Shown here: positions 3,801 through 38,849 of the stretch, one piece after another
How positions within the stretch are numbered: position 1 is the stretch's first letter
Layout of the letters: the number at the start of each line of letters is the position of its first letter
Origin: Candidatus Eiseniibacteriota bacterium
GTDB taxonomy: Bacteria; Eisenbacteria; RBG-16-71-46
Length of the DNA: 64,000 bases
NCBI GenBank assembly: GCA_005893225.1
Contig: VBOT01000053.1
Coordinates: 3,462 to 67,461, forward strand
Direction of reading: 5' to 3'
Notes under the pieces: generated by a model
Databases searched by the model: none
Told to the model about the DNA's origin: nothing
What the model saw: only the letters and a program-made list of their open reading frames with translations
Program-made: the position numbers and the translations under genes

Positions 3801-4440
3801 CTGGGTGCGTTCCGGCGGGGAGACCGACGGCAGCGCCGGGCTCCAGATCCGCGAGCTCCTGAACGGAGTCCAGCAGGCCCCCACGCTGCGCTCACCGGCG
3901 GTCCCGCTGTCGGCCGCCTGGCAGATGCTCACCGTCGATTACGTGGCGACGACAGCCGGGTCGAACCTCAACTTCCAGGTGATCGATTACCCGGTCGCGC
4001 GGGGCGAGACCTTCCTCACCGACGACATCTCGATCGTGATCGCTCCGGACGCCGCGACGGCCGCCGCGGCAGGGCGCGACTCGCGGGAGGAGAGCGGCGA
4101 GAGACCGGCGGCACCGACGTCGGCCGGCCCGCTCGGCTCACAAGAGGGCTGGGCAGGCCCGGAAGAGGCGTTCCGGGCCTCGGTCTCTCCCAATCCGTTC
4201 CTCTCCGGCGGCGCGCTGAGCTTCGGGATGCGCCGGGCCGGGCCGGTGCGTGCCCAGGTCTTCGATGTGCGCGGCCGATGCGTGCGGACCCTGATCGACG
4301 GGGACTGGCCCGCGGGACGTCAGATCATCGCGCTCGATGGTCGGGACGATCGGGGCGCGATGCTCCCGGCCGGGGTGTATTACTACCGCGTGCGCACTGC
4401 CGAAGGATCGCAGACGGGGCGGTTCCTGCTGCTGAGGTAG
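826..4440 (+). CDS. secreted multidomain phosphoesterase (phospholipase C / acid phosphatase family) with three tandem CBM-like modules, two PKD domains and a Por/T9SS-type C-terminal sorting domain; 5' end apparently frameshifted away from its signal peptide
   Basis: N-terminus HIVVVMENRPYD...NYIALWSG...DMHDC matches the PF04185 phosphoesterase signature (vvvlMENRSFD). Three ~340-aa repeats start NLVTNPSFESSTAGW. PKD-like ASASTDPDGPLASYTFDFGDGT occurs twice. The C-terminus GVYYYRVRTAEGSQTGRFLLLR is a sorting-domain-like tail. The in-frame region upstream of ATG 826 has no start codon and no signal peptide. Confidence 0.8.
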   Translation: MENRPYDKVVNQPYISSLIANGAVFTNSFALLHPSQPNYIALWSGSTQGCVNDVCPVPGSPFTTENLGHACEAAGLRWRAYSEDLPWAGSDTCRANNLYARKHDPWADFANLNHANERPYTDLAVDIANGALPDLAFVIPNLCNDMHDCSTAQGDTWLAGNVPAMLAALGPNGLLVLTWDEADHSPGNHILTVFCGQPVKRGFASADTVNHYTLLRAICEGLGLTPFMAAASERPIAGVWADRNLVTNPSFESSTAGWNAYHGATIARVPGGTDGAYALEIQGPANTGPFGVNDAPNWVSPVAAAGARYRCTAWVRSATGTGNAQIQVREFVSGVQKGTMFRSPAVPLSSAWQMIATDYVVANPGTTLDLQVIDVPVTPGEVFQADAVSIYLAGTDRAPVVTAPAVTGAEGSPITVNVTAVDPDKNPIGTLSADLSALPPGNNATFVPGPGNTTGTLTWTPSFADGGRSYPVSFTAGNALTGSTLTTLTIANVNRRPQASLAVAPATGVAPLAVRADASASTDPDGPLASYTFDFGDGTVVGPQSSPVATHTLAPGGWTVTLGVNDGEGGTGSASMPVTAYPNLVENPSFESSTAGWKASSGVTLTRVPGGYDGAWALEVQGPQTLTIFEVNDAPNWVNPVAAPGSRYRYTAWVRSAAGIGSARLRVREFLGGVQIGAVVRSQAVALSPAWQMLTSEFVATTAGSTLDFQVTDTPAAPGEVFDVDAVSIYLAGTDAAPTVTAPGATSGSAGTPITVRVTASDPDGDAIRSLVADLSSLPPGNDATFTPDPSNTSGSLTWTPDLADAGRSYSVTFTASNPLSGSAVTIISVTRPNHLPIAALSVTPPAGVAPLAVTADASASTDLDGPLASYAFDFGDGTVVGPQGSPVATHTFAPGVWRVTLRVDDGDGGSDFATASVTAYRNLVTNPSFETSTTGWNGYAGATVARTLGGHSGAFALAVKGPDTTTVFGVNDAPDWVSPVAGAGTRYRFAAWVRSGGETDGSAGLQIRELLNGVQQAPTLRSPAVPLSAAWQMLTVDYVATTAGSNLNFQVIDYPVARGETFLTDDISIVIAPDAATAAAAGRDSREESGERPAAPTSAGPLGSQEGWAGPEEAFRASVSPNPFLSGGALSFGMRRAGPVRAQVFDVRGRCVRTLIDGDWPAGRQIIALDGRDDRGAMLPAGVYYYRVRTAEGSQTGRFLLLR
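1555..4060. repeat. three tandem ~1020-nt intragenic modules (CBM-like + PKD) in the phosphoesterase gene; the third copy lacks the PKD part
   Basis: Repeat units begin at ~1555, ~2575 and ~3595 (NLVTNPSFESS / NLVENPSFESS / NLVTNPSFETS). Each unit ends in VSIYLAGTD followed by a PKD-like segment. Confidence 0.7.
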
Positions 4441-29833: not shown

Positions 29834-31273
29834 TTGAAGAGCTCGAGATGGGCGGGCCTGGTGCTCGCGCTGGCCATCGGCCCGCTCCCGGCCCAGGCTG
29901 CGCCCGCCACGACCCAGCGTCCCCCTGCCGGCACGGCGCCGGCGCGGCGTCCCGCGGGGGCCACCGTCGCGCCCGCGCGGCGCGCCACGCCCGCCCAGCG
30001 TCTCCAGCGGCTCGACGGAATCGCCGCTGTCGTCAACGATGACGTGGTGCTCCAGAGCGATGTCGAGGAGCAGTTGGCGCTGTTCGTCATGCGCAGCCAG
30101 ATCCAGCCGGACTCGGCCGCCGTCGACACGCTGCGCCGCCAGATCCTCGATCAGCTCATCGACGAGAAGCTGATCGTGGCGGAGGCCAAGCGTCAGGGCA
30201 TCACCGTGCCCGACGCCGAGATCGAGAAGCAGGTGGCGGACGCGCTGGCGGACGTCCGGCAGCGGCTCGGGAGCGAGCAGGCGTACCGCGAGCAGCTCGC
30301 GAGAGAGAACATGACCGAGGAGAAGCTGCGCGACAAGTACCGCGACGAGATCCGGCGCCAGCTCCTGGCCCAGCGGCTGGTCCAGAAGCAGTTGCCGCAC
30401 AAGAGCGTGCTCCCGGCGGAGGCGGAGGCCTACTTCAAGGCCAACCACGACAAGTTCCCGAAGATGCCTCCCGAGGTCAGGCTCCAGGTGATCCAGATCC
30501 CCGCCGCCGCCGACTCGGCCACCGAGGCCAAGGCCAAGGCCGAAGCCGTGGCGGTTCGCAAGCGGATCCTGGCGGGCGAGAAGTTCGCCAAGGTGGCGGC
30601 GGATGTCTCCGACGACCCCAACTCCGCGCGTTCGGGCGGCGACCTCGGCTTCTTCACGCGCGGCACGGTGGACTCCTCGCTCGAGGTCGTGGCGTTCGGC
30701 CTCAAGATCGGCGCGCTGAGCCCGCCGGTGCGGAGCCCCTTCGGCTGGCACATCATCGAGGTGCTGGAGCGCGACACGGTCAGGACCGTGGCCGGGCGCG
30801 ACAGCCTCGATCAGCAGGGGCGCCCGGTGCCCGAGGTCCACGCGCGCCACATCCTGATTCGCGTGCCGGTGAACGAGGCCGACAAGGAGCGGTCCCGCAA
30901 GCTCGCCGAGCGGGTTCGCGGCGAGGCGCTCAAGGGCACGGACTTCGGGACCCTGGTGCGGCGCTACAGCAAGTACGACGGGCCCCAGAGCCCGGATGGC
31001 GACGTCGGCTTCGTGTCGATGTCTTCGCTCCAGCCGCAGATCCGCGCCGGGCTCGACACGCTCGAGATGGGGCAGGTCAGCGACGTGCTCGTCAACCAGG
31101 CGGGGTTCAACATCTTCAAGGTCAACGACCGCAAGCCCGAACGCGAATACACGCTCGACGAGATCCGGGGAGAGCTCCCCGAGGTGGTCGCCCAGATGAA
31201 GCAGCGGGACCGCTACGACCAGTGGGTGAAGGAGCTGCGCACCAAGGCCCACATCGAGATCCGGAACTCGTGA
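29834..31273 (+). CDS. surA: SurA-like periplasmic chaperone / peptidyl-prolyl isomerase (two parvulin domains)
   Basis: SurA N-domain IAAVVNDDVVLQSDVEEQ. Two PpiC domains (GGDLGFFTRGTV; DGDVGFVSMSSL). GGAGG RBS before TTG 29834 (track start TTG 29819). Confidence 0.8.
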   Translation: MKSSRWAGLVLALAIGPLPAQAAPATTQRPPAGTAPARRPAGATVAPARRATPAQRLQRLDGIAAVVNDDVVLQSDVEEQLALFVMRSQIQPDSAAVDTLRRQILDQLIDEKLIVAEAKRQGITVPDAEIEKQVADALADVRQRLGSEQAYREQLARENMTEEKLRDKYRDEIRRQLLAQRLVQKQLPHKSVLPAEAEAYFKANHDKFPKMPPEVRLQVIQIPAAADSATEAKAKAEAVAVRKRILAGEKFAKVAADVSDDPNSARSGGDLGFFTRGTVDSSLEVVAFGLKIGALSPPVRSPFGWHIIEVLERDTVRTVAGRDSLDQQGRPVPEVHARHILIRVPVNEADKERSRKLAERVRGEALKGTDFGTLVRRYSKYDGPQSPDGDVGFVSMSSLQPQIRAGLDTLEMGQVSDVLVNQAGFNIFKVNDRKPEREYTLDEIRGELPEVVAQMKQRDRYDQWVKELRTKAHIEIRNS

Positions 31274-31339
31274 AGGGCCGGCGCTGCCCTCCGCTGAGGC
31301 ATTGAGGCGGCGGTCGGCGCCTGCTAACGTGCGTTCTCG

Positions 31340-32062
31340 ATGATCACGTTCGATGAGGTGACGAGGCGTTTCGGAGAGCGTCTGGCGCTCGATTCCGTCT
31401 CCTGGCACATGGACGAGGGCGAGTGCCTGGTGCTCCTCGGCCCGAGCGGCGCCGGCAAGACCACGGTGCTGAGGCTCATCACCCACGAGATCAAGCCGAC
31501 CTCGGGAACGGTCCTGGTGGGCACGTTCCGCAGCGGCCGCCTGTCGCGCTCCCAGCGCGCCCTGCTGCGCCGCACGCTCGGCGTCATCTACGAGGATTTC
31601 CGCCTCCTGAACGACCGCACCGTGTTCGAGAACGTGGCGCTGGCGGTGCGCATCATGGGTCGGTTCGCCACCTCCGAGGTGGTCCCGCGGGTGATGTACG
31701 CGCTCGAGGAGGTCGGCCTCCAGCACAAGCAGACCGCGTACCCGAACGAGCTCTCCGGCGGCGAGAAGCAGCGGGCCGCGATCGCGCGCGCGATCGTGAA
31801 CCGCCCGGCGGTGATCCTGGCCGACGAGCCCACCGGGGCGCTCGAGCCAGGGAGCGCCGGCGAGGTGCTGGCGCTCCTCAAGCGCATCCACCTCTAGGGC
31901 GCTGCCCTGCTCCTCGTCACCACCCGCCGGGAGGTCGCTCATGCGCTCGGCGGGCGGGTGATCACCATCGTCGACGGGCGCGTCCGCGAGACCGAGGCGG
32001 GTGCCGGGCCGGCGCTCGCTGCGCCGATCGCGACCGGCCTCAGGCCGGTGGCCGAGCGCTGA
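31340..32062 (+). pseudogene. ftsE: cell-division ABC ATPase FtsE interrupted by in-frame TAG (31895-31897); H-loop His absent
   Basis: Walker A GPSGAGKTT, signature LSGGEKQR, Walker B ILADEPTG. After LKRIHL the TAG is followed in frame by GAALLLVTTRREVAHALGGRVITIVDGRV, the normal FtsE C-terminus, but with TTRR where THD is expected. Confidence 0.7.
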
Positions 32063-32063
32063 C

Positions 32064-32924
32064 GTGCACCTGTTCTACTTTCGCGAGGCCTGGCGGTCGC
32101 TGAAGCACCACCGCGGGCTCGCCTACACGGCGATCGTCTCGCTCACCGCCGCGCTCACGCTCTCCGGCGTGTTCCTGCTGCTGGCCCACAACGTCGAGCT
32201 GGCTCTGCGGCTGGTGGGAGACCGCCGCGAGATGGTCGTGTACCTGCGGGACTCGGTCACCAAGGAGCAGCGCGACGGGCTGGTGGCGCGCCTGCTGCAG
32301 CTCTACGGCACCGAGGTCACCTACGTGAACAAGGACCAGGCGTGGAAGGAGCTCTCCGACCAGATCGGGGACCGCGAGCTGCTCGAGGCGGTGGACACCA
32401 ACCCGCTGCCGGCCTCGCTGCGCGTCAAGCTCAAGCCCGAGTTGCTCAATTACCGGGCGATGGACGACGCGGCCCGGCAGGTGCGGGTGTTCCCCGAGGT
32501 CGAGGACGTGCGCTACGGCGGCGAGTGGGTGCGGCGCCTCGACGAGCTCGGCCTCGGCCTGCGCCGCGGCGCGATGATCGCGGGGCTCACCGTGGCGATC
32601 GCCATCGTGTTCGTGATCTACAACACCATCCGCCTCACCGTGATGGCCCGGCGCCCGCAGGTCGAGATCATGAGCCGGCTCGGTGCCACCGACCGCTTCA
32701 TCGCCGCGCCGTTCGTGATCGAGGCGATGCTCCAGGCGGCGCTCGCCGCCTTGCTGGCGCTCGGCCTGGTGTTCGCCCTCGAGCGCGCGTTCGAGGCCCG
32801 CGTGGTGGCGGTTTCGTTCCTGCCGGTGACGTGGGCCGCGACATTTCTCGGCGCCGTCGTGCTGCTCTCGTGGATGGCGGCCATGCTGGCGCTCTCGAGG
32901 GTGCTGCGCGCGGTCGGGCCGTGA
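32064..32924 (+). CDS. ftsX: cell-division permease-like protein FtsX
   Basis: FYFREAWRSLKHHRGLAYTAIVSLTAALTL plus 4 TM helices. GTG 32064 overlaps the ftsE stop (track start 32001). Confidence 0.85.
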   Translation: MHLFYFREAWRSLKHHRGLAYTAIVSLTAALTLSGVFLLLAHNVELALRLVGDRREMVVYLRDSVTKEQRDGLVARLLQLYGTEVTYVNKDQAWKELSDQIGDRELLEAVDTNPLPASLRVKLKPELLNYRAMDDAARQVRVFPEVEDVRYGGEWVRRLDELGLGLRRGAMIAGLTVAIAIVFVIYNTIRLTVMARRPQVEIMSRLGATDRFIAAPFVIEAMLQAALAALLALGLVFALERAFEARVVAVSFLPVTWAATFLGAVVLLSWMAAMLALSRVLRAVGP

Positions 32925-34096
32925 GGCGGCTGGCACTCGTCCTGATCGGGCTCCTGGCGGCCGGCACCGCGCTCGCCCAGGACAGCCTGGAGGCCGCGAA
33001 GCGCCAGGAGCTGGAGGCGATCCGGCGCGAGGCGCGCGAGAAGCGTGAGGCCGCCGCGCAGCTCAAGGGTCAGGAGAACAAGGCGCTCGCCCAGCTCCGG
33101 CGCACCGAGCGCGAGCTCAATCTCACCCACAAGCGCCTCCGCTCGCTCGACCAGCGGCAGCGCTCGCTCGACAGCCGGCTCGACGCCACGCGCGTGGACC
33201 TCGACCGCAGCGTGCTGTCGCTCCAGCAGCAGAAGGAGCGGCTCGCCCGGCGGCTGCGCAACCTCTACAAGTTCGGCGCCGCGCGCGAGCTGGAGTTCCT
33301 GCTCTCGCCGCGCTCGTTCGCGCAGCTCCTCGCCCGCTGGGACTTCCTGGTGATGATCGCCGAGCAGGACCGCATCCTGCTCCAGGACGTGCAGGCGCGG
33401 AAGGAGGCGGTCGAGACCAACAAGCAGCGGCTCGAGATCAACCTGTCCGAGACCGAGCGCAACGCCCGGCGCACCACCCGCGAGAACGACCGGCTCGCCA
33501 CCCTCCGCCAGCTCCGCGCCTCGACCGTGACCACGATCAAGTCCCAGCGCGAGACCTACGAGGCGGCCGCCGCCGAGCTCGAGAACACGGCCCGCGCGAT
33601 CCAGCGGCTGCTCACCCAGCTCGAGCGCCGGCGCCAGCAGGAGTCGGCGCACGAGCGCGCCCAGGGGCGCGAGCCGCAGCCCTACACCGGGGACTTCGCG
33701 CGGGGGCAGGGCCAGCTCGACTGGCCGCTGCGCGGCAGCCTGGTCGGACGCTTCGGGCCCGAGCGTCACCCCAAGTGGGGAACGGTGACCATCAACAACG
33801 GGATCGACATCGAGACCGAGATCGGCACGCCGGTACGCTCGGTCGCGAAGGGCCGGGTCGACTACACGAGCGAGGACTTCGGCACCTACGGCCAGATGAT
33901 CATCGTGAACCACGGCGACGGCTACTACACGCTTTACGGCCACCTCTCGGAGATCGGCGTCTCGGTGGGGCAGGAGGTCGCTGCCGGGCAGGTGATCGGC
34001 AACTCCGGCGACTCGGGATCGCTCAAGGGCCCGGTGCTGCACTTCGAGGTCCGCAAGGGCGGGACGTCGCTCGACCCCGAGCAGTGGCTGCGGTGA
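32921..34096 (+). CDS. M23/LytM-domain murein hydrolase activator (EnvC-like) with coiled coil
   Basis: Long coiled-coil region. C-terminal LytM domain GIDIETEIGTPVRSVAKGRV...GNSGDSGSLKGPVLHFEVR. GTG overlaps the ftsX stop. Confidence 0.8.
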   Translation: MRRLALVLIGLLAAGTALAQDSLEAAKRQELEAIRREAREKREAAAQLKGQENKALAQLRRTERELNLTHKRLRSLDQRQRSLDSRLDATRVDLDRSVLSLQQQKERLARRLRNLYKFGAARELEFLLSPRSFAQLLARWDFLVMIAEQDRILLQDVQARKEAVETNKQRLEINLSETERNARRTTRENDRLATLRQLRASTVTTIKSQRETYEAAAAELENTARAIQRLLTQLERRRQQESAHERAQGREPQPYTGDFARGQGQLDWPLRGSLVGRFGPERHPKWGTVTINNGIDIETEIGTPVRSVAKGRVDYTSEDFGTYGQMIIVNHGDGYYTLYGHLSEIGVSVGQEVAAGQVIGNSGDSGSLKGPVLHFEVRKGGTSLDPEQWLR

Positions 34097-34171: not shown

Positions 34172-35305
34172 GTGCCCATTCCCGCGCTCTCCGACCTCCT
34201 GGGACAGCCCGAGGCCTCCGCGTTCCTGAGCGGCGTCGTCGCGCGCGCCCGGTACGCCAACGCCTACCTCTTTCAGGGTCCCGCGGGGGTCGGCAAGGGG
34301 ACCGCCGCCCTGGCCTTCGCGCGCGCCGTCCTGTGCGACCGGAGCGGGGGAGCGCCTCCGTGCGGGCGCTGTCCCGCCTGCCTCAAGAGCGCCCGCCTCC
34401 AGCACCCGGATCTCAAGTTCCTGTTCCCGGTCTCCGGCGAGGAGAAAGATCTGGACGAGACCATCGCCGCCACGCTCGCGGCGTGGCGCGAGGACCCGCT
34501 CTTCGTGTTCTCCTACGAGAAGGCGGCCTCGATCCGTCTCTCGATCACCCGCGACCTGCTCCGCGAGCTTGCGTTCAAGCCGTTCGAGGCCCAGCGCCGC
34601 GTGGTGGTCGTGCGGGACGCCGACCGCATGCGCGAGGACCAGTACTCGGCGATGCTCAAGGCGATCGAGGAGCCGGGCGCCTCCAGCCTCTGGGTGCTCA
34701 CCACCGCGCGGCCCTCGCGCCTGCCGGCGACCATCCGCTCACGCTGCCAGAAGGTGCGCTTCGCCCCGCTGCCCGAGGACCTGATCGCGGACTTCCTCTC
34801 CGAGCGGGCCGGCATCACCGCGCGCCCCGCGCGCATGCTCGCGGCGCTTTCCGGAGGCTCGCTGGCCCGCGCGCTGACGCTGCGCGAGCAGGATCCGCTG
34901 GCGCTGCGCAACCAGGCGCTCGCCCTGCTCGAGCCCGCGCTGCGAGGGGACCCGGCCACTCTGTGGAAGACGCTCGGCCGCCTCGGTCGCCCCGGACGCG
35001 AGACGATCCGCCGCCTCGTCGAGTTCCACCAGCTCTGGCTGCGCGACATCCTGCGCGCCCGCTACGGCGCGCCGCGCGAGTCGCTGGTCCATCGCGACCG
35101 GGAGGAGGAGATCCGCAAGCAGGCGCAGACACTCGATGCCACCGAGGTCCGGCGCCGGCTGATGGTGCTGGAGGAAGTCCTGCGCGCGATGGAGAGCAAC
35201 GTCGCGGTGGAGGTCGCGCTGTTCTCGGCGCTGACCCGGCTGGCGGACCGGTCGCTCGAGACCGACTCCTGGCCCCCTCATCCGACCGATCGGTGGGCCT
35301 ACTGA
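34172..35305 (+). CDS. holB: DNA polymerase III subunit delta prime
   Basis: AYLFQGPAGVGKGTAALAFARAVLC, zinc module CGRCPAC, and SRCQKVRF sensor motif. Confidence 0.85.
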   Translation: MPIPALSDLLGQPEASAFLSGVVARARYANAYLFQGPAGVGKGTAALAFARAVLCDRSGGAPPCGRCPACLKSARLQHPDLKFLFPVSGEEKDLDETIAATLAAWREDPLFVFSYEKAASIRLSITRDLLRELAFKPFEAQRRVVVVRDADRMREDQYSAMLKAIEEPGASSLWVLTTARPSRLPATIRSRCQKVRFAPLPEDLIADFLSERAGITARPARMLAALSGGSLARALTLREQDPLALRNQALALLEPALRGDPATLWKTLGRLGRPGRETIRRLVEFHQLWLRDILRARYGAPRESLVHRDREEEIRKQAQTLDATEVRRRLMVLEEVLRAMESNVAVEVALFSALTRLADRSLETDSWPPHPTDRWAY

Positions 35306-35648: not shown

Positions 35649-38600
35649 CTACTTCACGAGGAGGAAGCGTCCCGACGTTGCCCGGCCCCCGGCCAGGACG
35701 CGATAGAAGTAGACCCCGCTCCCGAGGGGCGCTCCGGACTCGCCCGAGCCGTCCAGGGCCACCTGGTGCTCGCCCGGAAGGATGCTCGGGAGGTCCAGGA
35801 GCGTGCGGACTCTTCGTCCGCGAAGGTCGAAGACCTCGATCCGCACCGGCCCGGCCCGCGACACCGAGAAATGGAGCTCGCCGTCCCGCCGGAGCGGATT
35901 CGGCGCCACCCAGGATGCCGGATGTGGAACCGGCGAGGCTTCTGGGCCACTCGCGGCCGCGGAGCGGCTCTCGGCCGCCGAGGCCGCCAGCTCCAGGTGG
36001 AGGATCGCCGCCCCACTCGCGGCGCCGTCGTACGAGACGGCGGTCCGCTTCCCGGACCCGGTGATCAGCAGCGCCAGGGCATTGCCGCTCCGCCACCCCG
36101 GGCGCCCGACGATCTCCTGGATCACGGGCGAGAGATCGGGCGTACGCTGCTCGGTGCCCGCCTGCCCGGCCGTCCAGGGCAGGATCGCCGGCCACGACAC
36201 CGCGGCCTGGGTGCCCGTCCCGAGCCTCGCCGTCAGGCTCCCGCTCCCGGTCGTGAATGCCGCGGCGTTGTCCGCCGCCTCCCCGCGAATCGAAAGGGTC
36301 GTCGCCTCGGACTGCGACTCGTCCGCCTGGAACTGCACGTAGGCCCCCGTCACGCTCGACCCTGCCGGGATCGAGAGTCCCGCGAACCGCAGTCCCACGA
36401 CCTTCTGCGGCGTGCCGTCGATCATCATCTCGAGATCGCTGCTGGTGAGGCTGACGCTCCCGTCGGAATGCTCCTCGGCGTCGTCGGGCCCGGCGGCGAT
36501 CCGAGTCTCGAGCGAGGCCCCGCCTCCTGACGATGGGATGTCGTGGCCGACGATCGCCACCGTGTCGCGCGACACGAGCTGCCCGTCGCTGGCCCGGAGC
36601 TCCAGCAGGTAGGTTCCCGCCACGCTGAACGACGCGCGCGTATCCACCGCGGCGGCGTTCGCGAACGTGACCGTCCCGGGGCCGCTGGCCTTGCTCCATG
36701 TTGTTACGAGGGAAGGCGGCTGCGGCAGCCCGTCGTCGGACACGGTTCCGTCCAGCGGCGCGTCGTTCGGCAGCGTGATGACCTGGTCCGGTCCCGCGTT
36801 CACGACCGGGGCCTGGTTAGTCACGGACCCCGACGTGTACTCCACGTGGAGCAGCGCAGCCGCGCCGGGGATCCCATCGAACGACACCGCGGTCCGGTGA
36901 CCCGACCCGGTGACGAGCAGGGCCAGGGCGTTGCCGCTCCGCCACCCGGCGCGCCCGACGATCTCGCGGATCACGGGCGAGAGGTCCGGCGTGCGCTGAT
37001 CGCTCCCCACCTGCCCGGCCGTCCAGGGCAGGAGCCCCGGCCAGCTCACCGCCGCCTGGGTGCCCGCCCCGAGCCTCGCCGTCAGGCTTCCGCTCGAGGT
37101 CGTGAACGCCGCGGCGTTGTCCGCCGCCTCGCCTCGGATCGAAAGCGTCGTCGCCTCGGACTGCGACTCGTCCGCCTGGAACTGCACGTAGGCTCGCGTC
37201 ACGCTCGAGCCCGCCGGGATCGAAACGCCCGTGAAGCGCAGGCCGACCACCTTCTGAGGAGTTCCGTCGATCATCATCTCGAGGTCGCCGCTCGTGAGGT
37301 TGACGCTCCCGTCGGAGCGCTCCTCGGCGTCGTCAGGCCCGGCGGCGATCCGGGTATCGATCGTCCCGGAGCCCGGAGGCCTCGTGTCCACGCAAGCGGT
37401 GTTCGACGGGGCGCCCTCGAGCCCGTTCGTCCCCACCGCCGTGGCCTCGTAGCACAGCTGGGCCTGCGGCGGGCTCGAGTCGGTGAAGCCGAGACTGGTG
37501 ACCAGGCTCGAGTTGAGCTTCTGGAACGAGCCGCCGTCCGCCTGCCGGTAGACGTCGTACCCGCTCACCGTGCCGGAGGGCGGGCCCCACGACAGGTCGA
37601 CCCGCGTCGGAGAAGAGCGCAGGGTCGCGATCAGGCTCTGGGGCGGTCCCGGCGCCGATCCGCCGGAGCCCGGCGAGCCGAACCCGTTCCACAGCGCCTT
37701 GCTGCCGTTCTCCGCCACGGCGATGAGGCTCCCCCTGGGAAGGATCTGTTTCATCCCGCTCACGTTGTTCATGTCCTTGGTGGACGAGATGAAGATCGTC
37801 TGGCCGCCGAAGCTGAGCGCCTCGATGTCGGCGACTCGATACTCGATGCGTTCGGGCGAGACTCCCCAGCGCGTGTAGAGGATGTAGACCTTGGAGTCCT
37901 GCTCAGCGACCATGATGATGCCCCGCGTCCCGGTCCCCGGGCCAATGACGTCGGTCTTAGTTGTCCAGGTGCCGTTCGTGGCGCGCCGGTGGACGCGCAT
38001 ATGATCGACGGCATCCTTGGTGATGGCGTAGACGCGACCCTGGGAATCGAAGGCCAGGTTCACGTGATCGTCGGCGTGGCCCGAGCCGTGGTCCACGACC
38101 TCCTCCGCGGCCCAGGTGCCGGGAGGATCGCTGTCGCGGTGCACCCGGAACCCGAACTCGTCGCGCTTCTGGTCGGACCAGAACACCCCGACCTTGTCGC
38201 CTCCGAAAGCCACGATCGAGGAGATGTCGTCGGCGTCGATTCCGGAGCGCAGGACGATGGAGCTCGACCACGAGCGGTGGTCGGCGGTGGTGGTGTAGTA
38301 GACGTTGACGTTGCCCCCGCCTTCGGCCGTCGCCCAGAGCCGGCCCGAGGAATCCTCCTCGAGCACCATGGTCTCCGAGCCGCTCGGGTTGGGGACCGTC
38401 ACGGGGAACCCCGAGGCCAGGACCCAGGAACGGGTGCCCGCCGCGTAGGTGTACTGGTAGAGCCGCACCGTGCCCCCGTAGACGAGCACGAAGAGATGCG
38501 TACCGTCCCACTTGACGTCCGCGTTCCCCGAGCTCTGGAGCACCGCATTCGCGAACTGCCCGCGTTGCCAGGCGCCTCCGACCAGCTGGTAGAAGGCCAC

Positions 38601-38849
38601 GCCGTCGGGACCCTGGAGCACGGCCCAGTAGAAACCGTCGTTGTAGAAGAGCTTGGACTGCGGCTTCTCCCCGGTGCTGGCCGCCACGGTGGAGAACATC
38701 TCGAATCCGACGTTCGCCGCCCCGGCGGGCGCGGGGCAGGCGAGGAGCGCCGCCGCCAGTCCGGCCATCACCCCGGCGGCCGCCACCGGCGATCCGGTGT
38801 CACGCATGGATGTATATCCCAGGTGTGGAGCAGGTGGCTGACGGAGCAC
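35649..38849 (-). CDS. large secreted beta-propeller/FN3 protein with two near-identical ~190-aa internal repeats and Por/T9SS-type C-terminal domain
   Basis: Signal peptide. FN3-like PPQSLIATLRSSPTRVDLSWGPPSGTVSGYDVYRQ. Duplicated TRIAAGPDDAEE...RTAVS.DG modules. C-terminal GVYFYRVLAGGRATSGRFLLVK. Confidence 0.8.
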   Translation of the reverse strand: MLRQPPAPHLGYTSMRDTGSPVAAAGVMAGLAAALLACPAPAGAANVGFEMFSTVAASTGEKPQSKLFYNDGFYWAVLQGPDGVAFYQLVGGAWQRGQFANAVLQSSGNADVKWDGTHLFVLVYGGTVRLYQYTYAAGTRSWVLASGFPVTVPNPSGSETMVLEEDSSGRLWATAEGGGNVNVYYTTTADHRSWSSSIVLRSGIDADDISSIVAFGGDKVGVFWSDQKRDEFGFRVHRDSDPPGTWAAEEVVDHGSGHADDHVNLAFDSQGRVYAITKDAVDHMRVHRRATNGTWTTKTDVIGPGTGTRGIIMVAEQDSKVYILYTRWGVSPERIEYRVADIEALSFGGQTIFISSTKDMNNVSGMKQILPRGSLIAVAENGSKALWNGFGSPGSGGSAPGPPQSLIATLRSSPTRVDLSWGPPSGTVSGYDVYRQADGGSFQKLNSSLVTSLGFTDSSPPQAQLCYEATAVGTNGLEGAPSNTACVDTRPPGSGTIDTRIAAGPDDAEERSDGSVNLTSGDLEMMIDGTPQKVVGLRFTGVSIPAGSSVTRAYVQFQADESQSEATTLSIRGEAADNAAAFTTSSGSLTARLGAGTQAAVSWPGLLPWTAGQVGSDQRTPDLSPVIREIVGRAGWRSGNALALLVTGSGHRTAVSFDGIPGAAALLHVEYTSGSVTNQAPVVNAGPDQVITLPNDAPLDGTVSDDGLPQPPSLVTTWSKASGPGTVTFANAAAVDTRASFSVAGTYLLELRASDGQLVSRDTVAIVGHDIPSSGGGASLETRIAAGPDDAEEHSDGSVSLTSSDLEMMIDGTPQKVVGLRFAGLSIPAGSSVTGAYVQFQADESQSEATTLSIRGEAADNAAAFTTGSGSLTARLGTGTQAAVSWPAILPWTAGQAGTEQRTPDLSPVIQEIVGRPGWRSGNALALLITGSGKRTAVSYDGAASGAAILHLELAASAAESRSAAASGPEASPVPHPASWVAPNPLRRDGELHFSVSRAGPVRIEVFDLRGRRVRTLLDLPSILPGEHQVALDGSGESGAPLGSGVYFYRVLAGGRATSGRFLLVK
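35940..37352. repeat. two ~840-nt tandem DNA repeats (~90% identical) inside the giant secreted-protein gene
   Basis: For example 36192-36375 vs 37035-37215 are nearly identical on the plus strand. Confidence 0.75.

Follow-up and report, generated by a model that had tools for sequence, protein, structure and literature searches.

The closest described systems are the FtsEX-EnvC complexes of bacterial cell division. In the FtsEX-EnvC-AmiB complex of Pseudomonas aeruginosa, structures and biochemistry indicate that ATP binding extends EnvC and recruits or activates the amidase, and that hydrolysis resets the complex to an auto-inhibited state (PMC10214136). FtsE is the ATP-binding cassette (ABC) ATPase of such complexes. 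In ABC proteins, the Q-loop and the H-loop have been described as sensors of the gamma-phosphate and the D-loop as a stabilizer of the dimer of nucleotide-binding domains (NBDs) (PMC7756269), and FtsE from Escherichia coli has all of the canonical motifs (PMC7791547). Here we consider the ftsE gene on a stretch of 64,000 nucleotides from a Candidatus Eisenbacteria genome (GenBank assembly GCA_005893225.1, contig VBOT01000053.1), all of which we call the window. This gene is unusual in two ways: its reading frame is interrupted by an amber codon (TAG), and the encoded protein lacks three of the canonical residues of the catalytic site. Our best joint explanation, which we consider quite probable, is that these are separate matters: a nonsense allele that is private to one haplotype, and a non-canonical site in FtsE that is found across the phylum.

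The FtsE of the window is 38-42% identical to the FtsE of FtsEX-EnvC systems (E. coli, P. aeruginosa, and Vibrio cholerae; structures 8hd0, 8i6o-8i6s, and 8tzj) and to FtsE from Gram-positive bacteria and mycobacteria (6z4w/6z63 and 8idb/8jia). It shares with them the order of ftsE, ftsX, and a partner with a coiled coil and an M23 domain, as well as the Walker A, Walker B, and signature motifs. Unlike them, the Eisenbacteria proteins have Glu in the Q-loop, Glu in the D-loop, and Thr-Arg in the H-loop, and the copy in the window is also cut at codon 186. Our literature search found no specific account of an FtsE or other ABC protein with Glu in the Q-loop or without the His of the H-loop, nor of cell division in Eisenbacteria. 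The conserved FtsE variant of the Eisenbacteria and their sister lineage is apparently undescribed.

The interrupted ftsE gene and its close relatives

The whole ftsE frame, including the part beyond the amber codon, is 31340..32062 on the forward strand. It is made up as follows.

31340..31897, + strand: 5' part of ftsE, 185 codons, closed by the premature TAG
31895..31897, + strand: premature amber codon (codon 186); GAG (Glu) in 13 related contigs, and Glu in 119/119 homologues
31898..32062, + strand: rest of ftsE in the same frame, 54 codons and a TGA (32060-32062)
31859..31861, + strand: codon 174, GGC (Gly); GAC (Asp) in the other contigs from the population; a further change that only the TAG haplotype has

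If the frame is translated through the TAG, then its top family is TIGR02673 (FtsE in NCBIfam), with an alignment to positions 1-213 of the 214 in the profile and E = 1.5e-63; the second-best family is MetN, at 153 bits. Because the alignment spans nearly the whole profile, the match to FtsE crosses the TAG. Furthermore, the G+C content at third codon positions (GC3) is 0.95 upstream of the TAG and 0.91 downstream of it, so the coding signal goes on past the stop (the G+C content of the window is about 70%). The original prediction held that the FtsE frame continues through 31895, and it does, for another 54 codons. The score against TIGR02673 (214.3 bits) is under the curated equivalog cut-off of 264.85, and by this measure the Eisenbacteria FtsE clade appears to be divergent from the equivalog; PF00005 (ABC_tran) is matched at 114 bits, where the cut-off is 25. 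The AlphaFold 2 model of an intact allele (P0002) is confident (predicted local distance difference test, 91.9), and its top Foldseek matches are FtsE structures from Streptococcus pneumoniae (6z63) and E. coli (8hd0), with template modelling (TM) scores of 0.83-0.91. Against 6z63 alone, Foldseek gives TM scores of 0.86-0.91 and a root-mean-square deviation of 1.5-1.8, which supports the fold of an ABC ATPase, with a RecA-like and a helical subdomain. By all these matches we identify the gene as the FtsE orthologue of a soil population of Candidatus Eisenbacteria.

The TAG differs by a single base from the codon of the nearest relatives: it is a G>T change in a GAG codon for Glu186. The original prediction proposed comparing relatives at 31895, and near-identical contigs read GAG there. 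Many contigs from this population are available from soil metagenomes (JGI Ga0066xxx and Ga0209xxx; ENA CRIT18-1 and ERZ2728x/2731x). Apart from the window, we found the TAG only in a single JGI contig (L001, sample 3300009137), which has 7 differences from the window in 3488 nt (99.8% identity). Another 13 contigs have GAG (L002/L084, L083, L085-L091, and L094-L097, the last four from a metagenome scan that left the base at 31895 ambiguous). One of these (L094) is 93% identical to the window and the others are 99.2-99.8% identical, where identity was measured over the whole contig. Two of them (L085 and L091) differ from the ftsE of the window at just two bases, 31860 and 31895. At the protein level, P0001-P0003 (240 amino acids, 96-99% identical) have HLEGAALL where the window has HL-stop-GAALL.

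We counted motifs in 119 full-length homologues and surveyed 75 species-level Eisenbacteria loci. Glu186 is invariant (119/119), and none of the 75 species-representative loci has an in-frame stop in ftsE. The FtsE frame is interrupted in the window and in L001 and is uninterrupted in all of the other contigs. The other private change, D174G at position 31860, is probably neutral, because column 174 varies across the phylum. Downstream of the TAG, the window has 5 differences from L002, and all of them are synonymous; FtsX is 100% identical to the FtsX of the contigs with GAG. Because the 3' remainder of the gene is otherwise undamaged and FtsX is unchanged, the TAG allele looks very recent.

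Could the TAG be translated? One explanation is functional read-through, in which a suppressor or near-cognate tRNA decodes the TAG at a useful rate, so that full-length FtsE is still made. The frame after the TAG is indeed intact, with a full coding signal, and the post-stop differences from L002 are all synonymous, but this would be expected equally of a very young mutation. Within the window, TAG closes 12 of the 33 open reading frames (ORFs) with high GC3: ftsE and 11 others, including the ORFs that end at 4440 and 6995. Since 11 other probable genes stop at TAG, recoding is unsupported, as the original prediction had already argued from the genes ending at 4440 and 6995. ARAGORN found no tRNA with a CUA anticodon in the window, an Rfam scan of the window gave no match, and the predicted fold of 31880-31990, which takes in the RNA just downstream of the stop, does not stand out from shuffled sequences (z = -1.34). 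The TAG is followed by a G, and we know of no leaky context with a G after the stop. Finally, all close relatives encode Glu at the invariant position 186, a residue that the usual kinds of amber read-through would not insert. We therefore consider functional read-through to be very improbable. Reassignment of the stop codon or amber suppression is made unlikely by the use of TAG in the window, by the GAG in relatives, and by the scans of the window for tRNAs and Rfam families.

A more serious alternative is that the T at 31895 (along with the G at 31860) is an artefact of sequencing or of the consensus: either a plain error or a low-frequency variant that two assemblers, working from the same reads, took into the consensus, while the organism has an intact ftsE with GAG. 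Several points weigh in this direction and against a genuine allele. The TAG is present in only 2 of the 15 contigs from the population, and both of these assemblies appear to come from one soil project and may stem from the same reads, so the allele may sit in a single sample. Among the differences between the window and L001 are positions that are variable within the population (30571 and 30656), as would be expected if two assemblers had resolved one mixture differently. Both private changes, which are 35 nt apart, lie within a tract (31756-31957) that is dense in single-nucleotide differences and that looks like a product of recombination, where strain mixtures would be difficult to assemble. 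Also, L001 has an odd change at the equivalent of 31830 in the window, where C>G turns the invariant Pro164 of DEPTG into Arg (P164R). This could be either further decay of a broken allele or an error due to low coverage. All three of the changes that are private to the TAG lineage (D174G, E186stop, and P164R in L001) are non-synonymous, which fits errors as well as it fits decay.

On the other hand, two separately deposited assemblies (an NCBI metagenome-assembled genome and a JGI contig) share both of the private bases and yet differ elsewhere. Because the TAG is common to both, a glitch of one assembler is unlikely, and random read errors seldom reach the consensus. There is no frameshift or other disruptive lesion in the rest of the 15 kb that was compared. 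Overall, we think that an artefact is unlikely, although it is the alternative that we would take seriously. We favor the view, with reasonable confidence, that the TAG is a genuine and recent loss-of-function allele at the level of the strain. It is best read as an ordinary segregating nonsense allele that arose in a single step. It resembles the usual nonsense pseudogene or polymorphism in a metagenome-assembled genome in that it is one base away from the sense codon of near-identical strains and has no compensating feature; the sole oddity is that it lies in a core division gene, whose stop normally adjoins the start of ftsX.

Two other ideas about the TAG haplotype were rejected. Generally poor assembly would not account for the TAG: across 15 kb, a comparison of the window with L002 shows no frameshifting indel in coding sequence. 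Nor did we find support for relaxed selection on this haplotype: all 3 of its private changes are non-synonymous, but with 39 synonymous and 25 non-synonymous changed codons nearby, this does not reach significance.

The window and L002 differ at 92 sites, of which 16, including the TAG, are in the tract itself (6855-7056 of L002), and its alternative haplotype matches the lineage of L094, the contig that is 93% identical. This pattern suggests either homologous recombination between related populations of Eisenbacteria or a consensus that is a mosaic of strains.

As for annotation, the 185-residue product is identical to TMQ51813.1 (UniRef100_A0A538SKB2), which is annotated as "ATP-binding cassette domain-containing protein." This entry is a shortened FtsE that belongs to a single haplotype and is not representative of the species. 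Beyond this correction, the TAG itself is of low interest.

The catalytic site of FtsE across the Eisenbacteria

The motifs of the active site, including one that lies beyond the TAG, are as follows; counts are of the full-length homologues.

31439..31465, + strand: Walker A, GPSGAGKTT, codons 34-42, canonical
31592..31594, + strand: Q-loop, codon 85, GAG (Glu) in place of Gln; Glu in 118/119 relatives
31751..31765, + strand: ABC signature, LSGGE, codons 138-142, kept; most relatives have LSAGE
31823..31828, + strand: Walker B, Asp162-Glu163, kept (VILADE)
31844..31846, + strand: D-loop, codon 169, Glu in place of Asp (A-L-E where the canonical sequence is N-L-D); Ala167 in 119/119 and Glu169 in 117/119
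31922..31927, + strand: H-loop, Thr195-Arg196, where the canonical residues are His and Asp or Asn; Thr195 (ACC, 31922-31924) in 118/119 and Arg196 in 101/119

In other words, the protein has the Walker A, Walker B, and signature motifs of an ABC ATPase and lacks the canonical residues of the Q-, D-, and H-loops. The aromatic residue of the A-loop and the Lys of Walker A are kept as well. The original prediction was right that the H-loop His is absent, but it read the site as T-R-R, which is off by one: in ungapped alignments to E. coli FtsE and (by HMMER) to S. pneumoniae FtsE (6z4w), the canonical A-T-H-D lies opposite V-T-T-R, so that the position of the His is occupied by Thr195 and the Arg is at the next position. 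It also overlooked the changes to Glu85 in the Q-loop and Glu169 in the D-loop.

Throughout the 75 species-level loci, every complete FtsE has YED at the Q-loop and TTR or TTN at the H-loop, except for one with VTSH; one other locus is cut off before the H-loop. By contrast, FQD together with THD, THN, or THE is found in the outgroup FtsE and in nearly all of the other FtsE-like proteins among the 150 best cluster representatives (at 50% identity). The original prediction raised the possibility that the change in the H-loop was specific to this strain, and the comparison with relatives excludes this, with Thr195 in 118 of 119. As one of several explanations, it had also offered the stop and the missing His as a single story of a decaying ftsE, which does not survive the comparison either: the motifs are fixed in about 75 species-level genomes and about 120 homologues, while the TAG is private to one haplotype. 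Judging from this distribution, the missing His is unrelated to the TAG.

We also considered whether the Eisenbacteria FtsE as a whole might be a degenerating pseudo-ATPase, with the TAG as the last step of a decay that runs through the lineage. The three replaced residues (the Gln of the Q-loop, the Asp of the D-loop, and the His of the H-loop) are all linked to hydrolysis, and in the sister clade that we describe below, these positions vary and some members have Asp instead of the Glu of Walker B. However, the replacements are themselves nearly invariant (Glu85 and Thr195 in 118/119, and Glu169 in 117/119). FtsE is also better conserved than FtsX or the EnvC-like protein, with mean identities to the window across the species loci of 72%, 62%, and 62%, respectively, and the genes are colinear (ftsE, ftsX, and then the M23 gene) in all 66 of the 66 complete species loci. 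No other locus has a stop, and the AlphaFold 2 model is confident. Conservation thus largely refutes decay across the lineage, and we give this idea hardly any credence. Because the replacements are nearly invariant and FtsE has changed less than the other proteins of its operon, the non-canonical site is under purifying selection, with constraint on the derived state rather than decay.

The sister clade gives some indication of how this site arose. Its FtsE proteins (loci L093 and L098; proteins P0147 and P0274-P0305) are 44-49% identical to the FtsE of the window, and its gene order (mfd, a peptidyl-prolyl isomerase gene, surA, ftsE, ftsX, and the M23 gene) is as in Eisenbacteria. All of its members have Glu in the Q-loop (VFED or VFEE). 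At the H-loop, some members have kept His while many have Asn, so that His has been lost repeatedly, and the D-loops vary (NLD, RLD, HLG, or HLE). In one sub-clade, Walker B reads D-D-P, with Asp in place of the catalytic Glu. That the sister clade always has Glu in the Q-loop and has variable H- and D-loops suggests that the change from Gln to Glu came first, and that the residues for hydrolysis were free to change later in evolution, even as the gene and its operon were kept.

What would such a protein do? Because every motif for ATP binding and for dimerization is kept, the "on" step should persist: we expect that an intact Eisenbacteria FtsE would still bind ATP, form an ATP-sandwich dimer, and drive the "on" switch of FtsX and EnvC. 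A Thr or Asn at the H-loop position could still donate a hydrogen bond. Nor does losing the H-loop His always abolish activity: in NBD2 of MRP1, proteins with Gln or Asn in place of this His still transported (PMC7756269). Most likely, hydrolysis would be slower or differently catalyzed and the active state would be longer-lived; a total loss of ATPase activity seems less likely.

A partial parallel is found in the degenerate sites of heterodimeric exporters (TAP1/2, ABCC1, CFTR, and Pdr5), in which the H-loop His is likewise replaced and nucleotide binding is kept (PMC7756269). Those sites bind ATP but have little or no hydrolytic activity, and their role is regulatory (PMC7756269). But a heterodimeric exporter has one degenerate and one consensus site, and usually the Glu of Walker B or the signature is changed as well. 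The Eisenbacteria FtsE is presumably a homodimer, given the single ftsE, so both of its sites would be non-canonical, an arrangement for which our search turned up no published description. The Glu of Walker B is kept in the core clade and is replaced by Asp only in the sister sub-clade.

A bolder reading, which we hold to be less likely than not, is that the FtsE of Eisenbacteria and the sister lineage may be a naturally rewired or hydrolysis-impaired homodimeric ABC ATPase, whose switch would be driven mainly by ATP binding with a slow or differently catalyzed reset; the nonsense allele would then suggest that some strains may do without FtsE. A second, canonical ftsE may exist elsewhere in these genomes. 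Each locus has only one ftsE beside ftsX, and we found no other ABC ATPase in the window (E <= 1e-3). The original prediction also had, as one possibility, FtsX-EnvC acting without ATPase activity in this lineage. What is left of that is a weaker idea, namely less reliance on canonical hydrolysis, for which the sister clade gives some support.

In any case, a whole phylum keeps an FtsE in which three residues for sensing the gamma-phosphate or for hydrolysis have been replaced and all of the ATP-binding motifs have been retained. This makes the clade a natural experiment in how much of the canonical chemistry of hydrolysis is needed by an ABC complex of the mechanotransmission type. Although these organisms are uncultured, the question could be approached with recombinant protein.

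Two proteins that look like intermediates, with Glu in the Q-loop and a normal His (P0151 and P0223), are encoded by chimeric contigs of about 1 kb: each joins the N-terminal part of an Eisenbacteria FtsE to a C-terminal half from another ABC family. We discarded them, and such chimeras could mislead surveys of motifs. Similarly, P0004, P0005, and P0273 are mosaics in which a window-type half and a divergent half of FtsE are joined, and are likely to be chimeric assemblies. Also, eight loci (L008, L012, L016, L026, L031, L045, L058, and L076) have an Eisenbacteria-type ftsE, 67-78% identical and with YED and TTR where the gene is complete, and are titled as Limnocylindria, Udaeobacter, Saccharimonadaceae, Binatia, Acidiferrales, Verrucomicrobiia, Methylomirabilota, or Terriglobales. 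Most of these are SMAG third-party assemblies, and the labels of the records or the binning of the genomes look unreliable.

Probable effects of the stop, the operon, and other features of the window

Translation of the TAG allele would end after residue 185. In the AlphaFold 2 model of P0002, which is an intact allele, helix 170-185 stops exactly at the truncation point. Strand 189-194, helix 197-203, and strands 206-211 and 214-217 all come after it, as does the position of the H-loop, and the truncation removes them. According to this model, the lost segment would comprise three beta-strands of the RecA-like nucleotide-binding core and the whole of the H-loop segment. The 185-residue product is thus almost certainly non-functional and would be unlikely to fold. 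A split gene with a separate C-terminal piece does not seem tenable: the first in-frame codon past the TAG that could serve as a start is the GTG at codon 207, which would give 34 amino acids without strand 189-194.

The stop may also affect the genes downstream, which, along with the other neighbors of ftsE, are as follows.

29834..31273, + strand: SurA-like peptidyl-prolyl isomerase, upstream; a neighbor in 70/75 species loci
32064..32924, + strand: ftsX, with PF18075 (FtsX_ECD) and PF02687 (permease); GTG start 1 nt past the TGA of ftsE
32921..34096, + strand: EnvC-like gene, with a coiled coil and an M23 domain (PF24568 and PF01551); overlaps the stop of ftsX by 4 nt
34172..35305, + strand: holB (DNA polymerase III delta'), downstream; a neighbor in 43/75 species loci

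The order of this conserved cluster is surA, ftsE, ftsX, the envC-like gene, and holB. The original prediction described ftsX and envC as intact, and both are. In the TAG allele, ribosomes would stop 167 nt short of the start of ftsX, which normally abuts the stop of ftsE, so translational coupling to ftsX and to the EnvC-like gene would probably be weakened. We found no promoter or terminator inside 31100-32300 that could reorganize expression. A null allele could be tolerated, as several bacteria need FtsEX only under certain conditions; in E. coli, for example, ftsEX mutants survive when the osmotic strength is high (Reddy 2007, as cited in PMC7343993).

The EnvC-like protein scores 94 bits against the NCBIfam model for EnvC, for which the cut-off is 270. 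Reading its sequence directly, we found NNGID at the site of HxxxD and VLHFE at the site of HxH. We take HxxxD and HxH, as in lysostaphin and LytM, to be the motifs of active M23 enzymes. By eye, both motifs look degenerate, and the protein looks like a non-catalytic activator of the dLytM type, similar to EnvC from E. coli.

We also noticed some features that do not bear on the two main subjects. Within the last part of ftsE, at 31929-31961, a sequence that strongly resembles a Shine-Dalgarno site (GGGAGG) stands 6 nt before an ATG (31929-31943 in all), which opens only a 6-codon ORF in the frame of ftsX that ends with the TGA at 31959-31961. This is probably a by-product of conserved Arg-Glu-Val codons. 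In the population contig L095, holB has 21 nt fewer than in the window (7 codons, in frame, relative to 34313-34338), near a Cys-rich stretch at the N-terminus; this is a length polymorphism.

Farther downstream, the large ORF at 35649..38849 on the reverse strand encodes a protein of about 1050 amino acids that is probably secreted and that has faint matches in Pfam to PKD-like and FlgD_ig domains. ARAGORN called a tRNA-Ala(tgc) of 92 nt inside this ORF (36861-36952, reverse strand). Rfam shows no tRNA there at the gathering threshold, and the call is probably a false positive. It falls in one of two repeats of about 520 nt (35991-36511 and 36840-37360) that are about 86% identical to each other and that represent a duplication of a domain.

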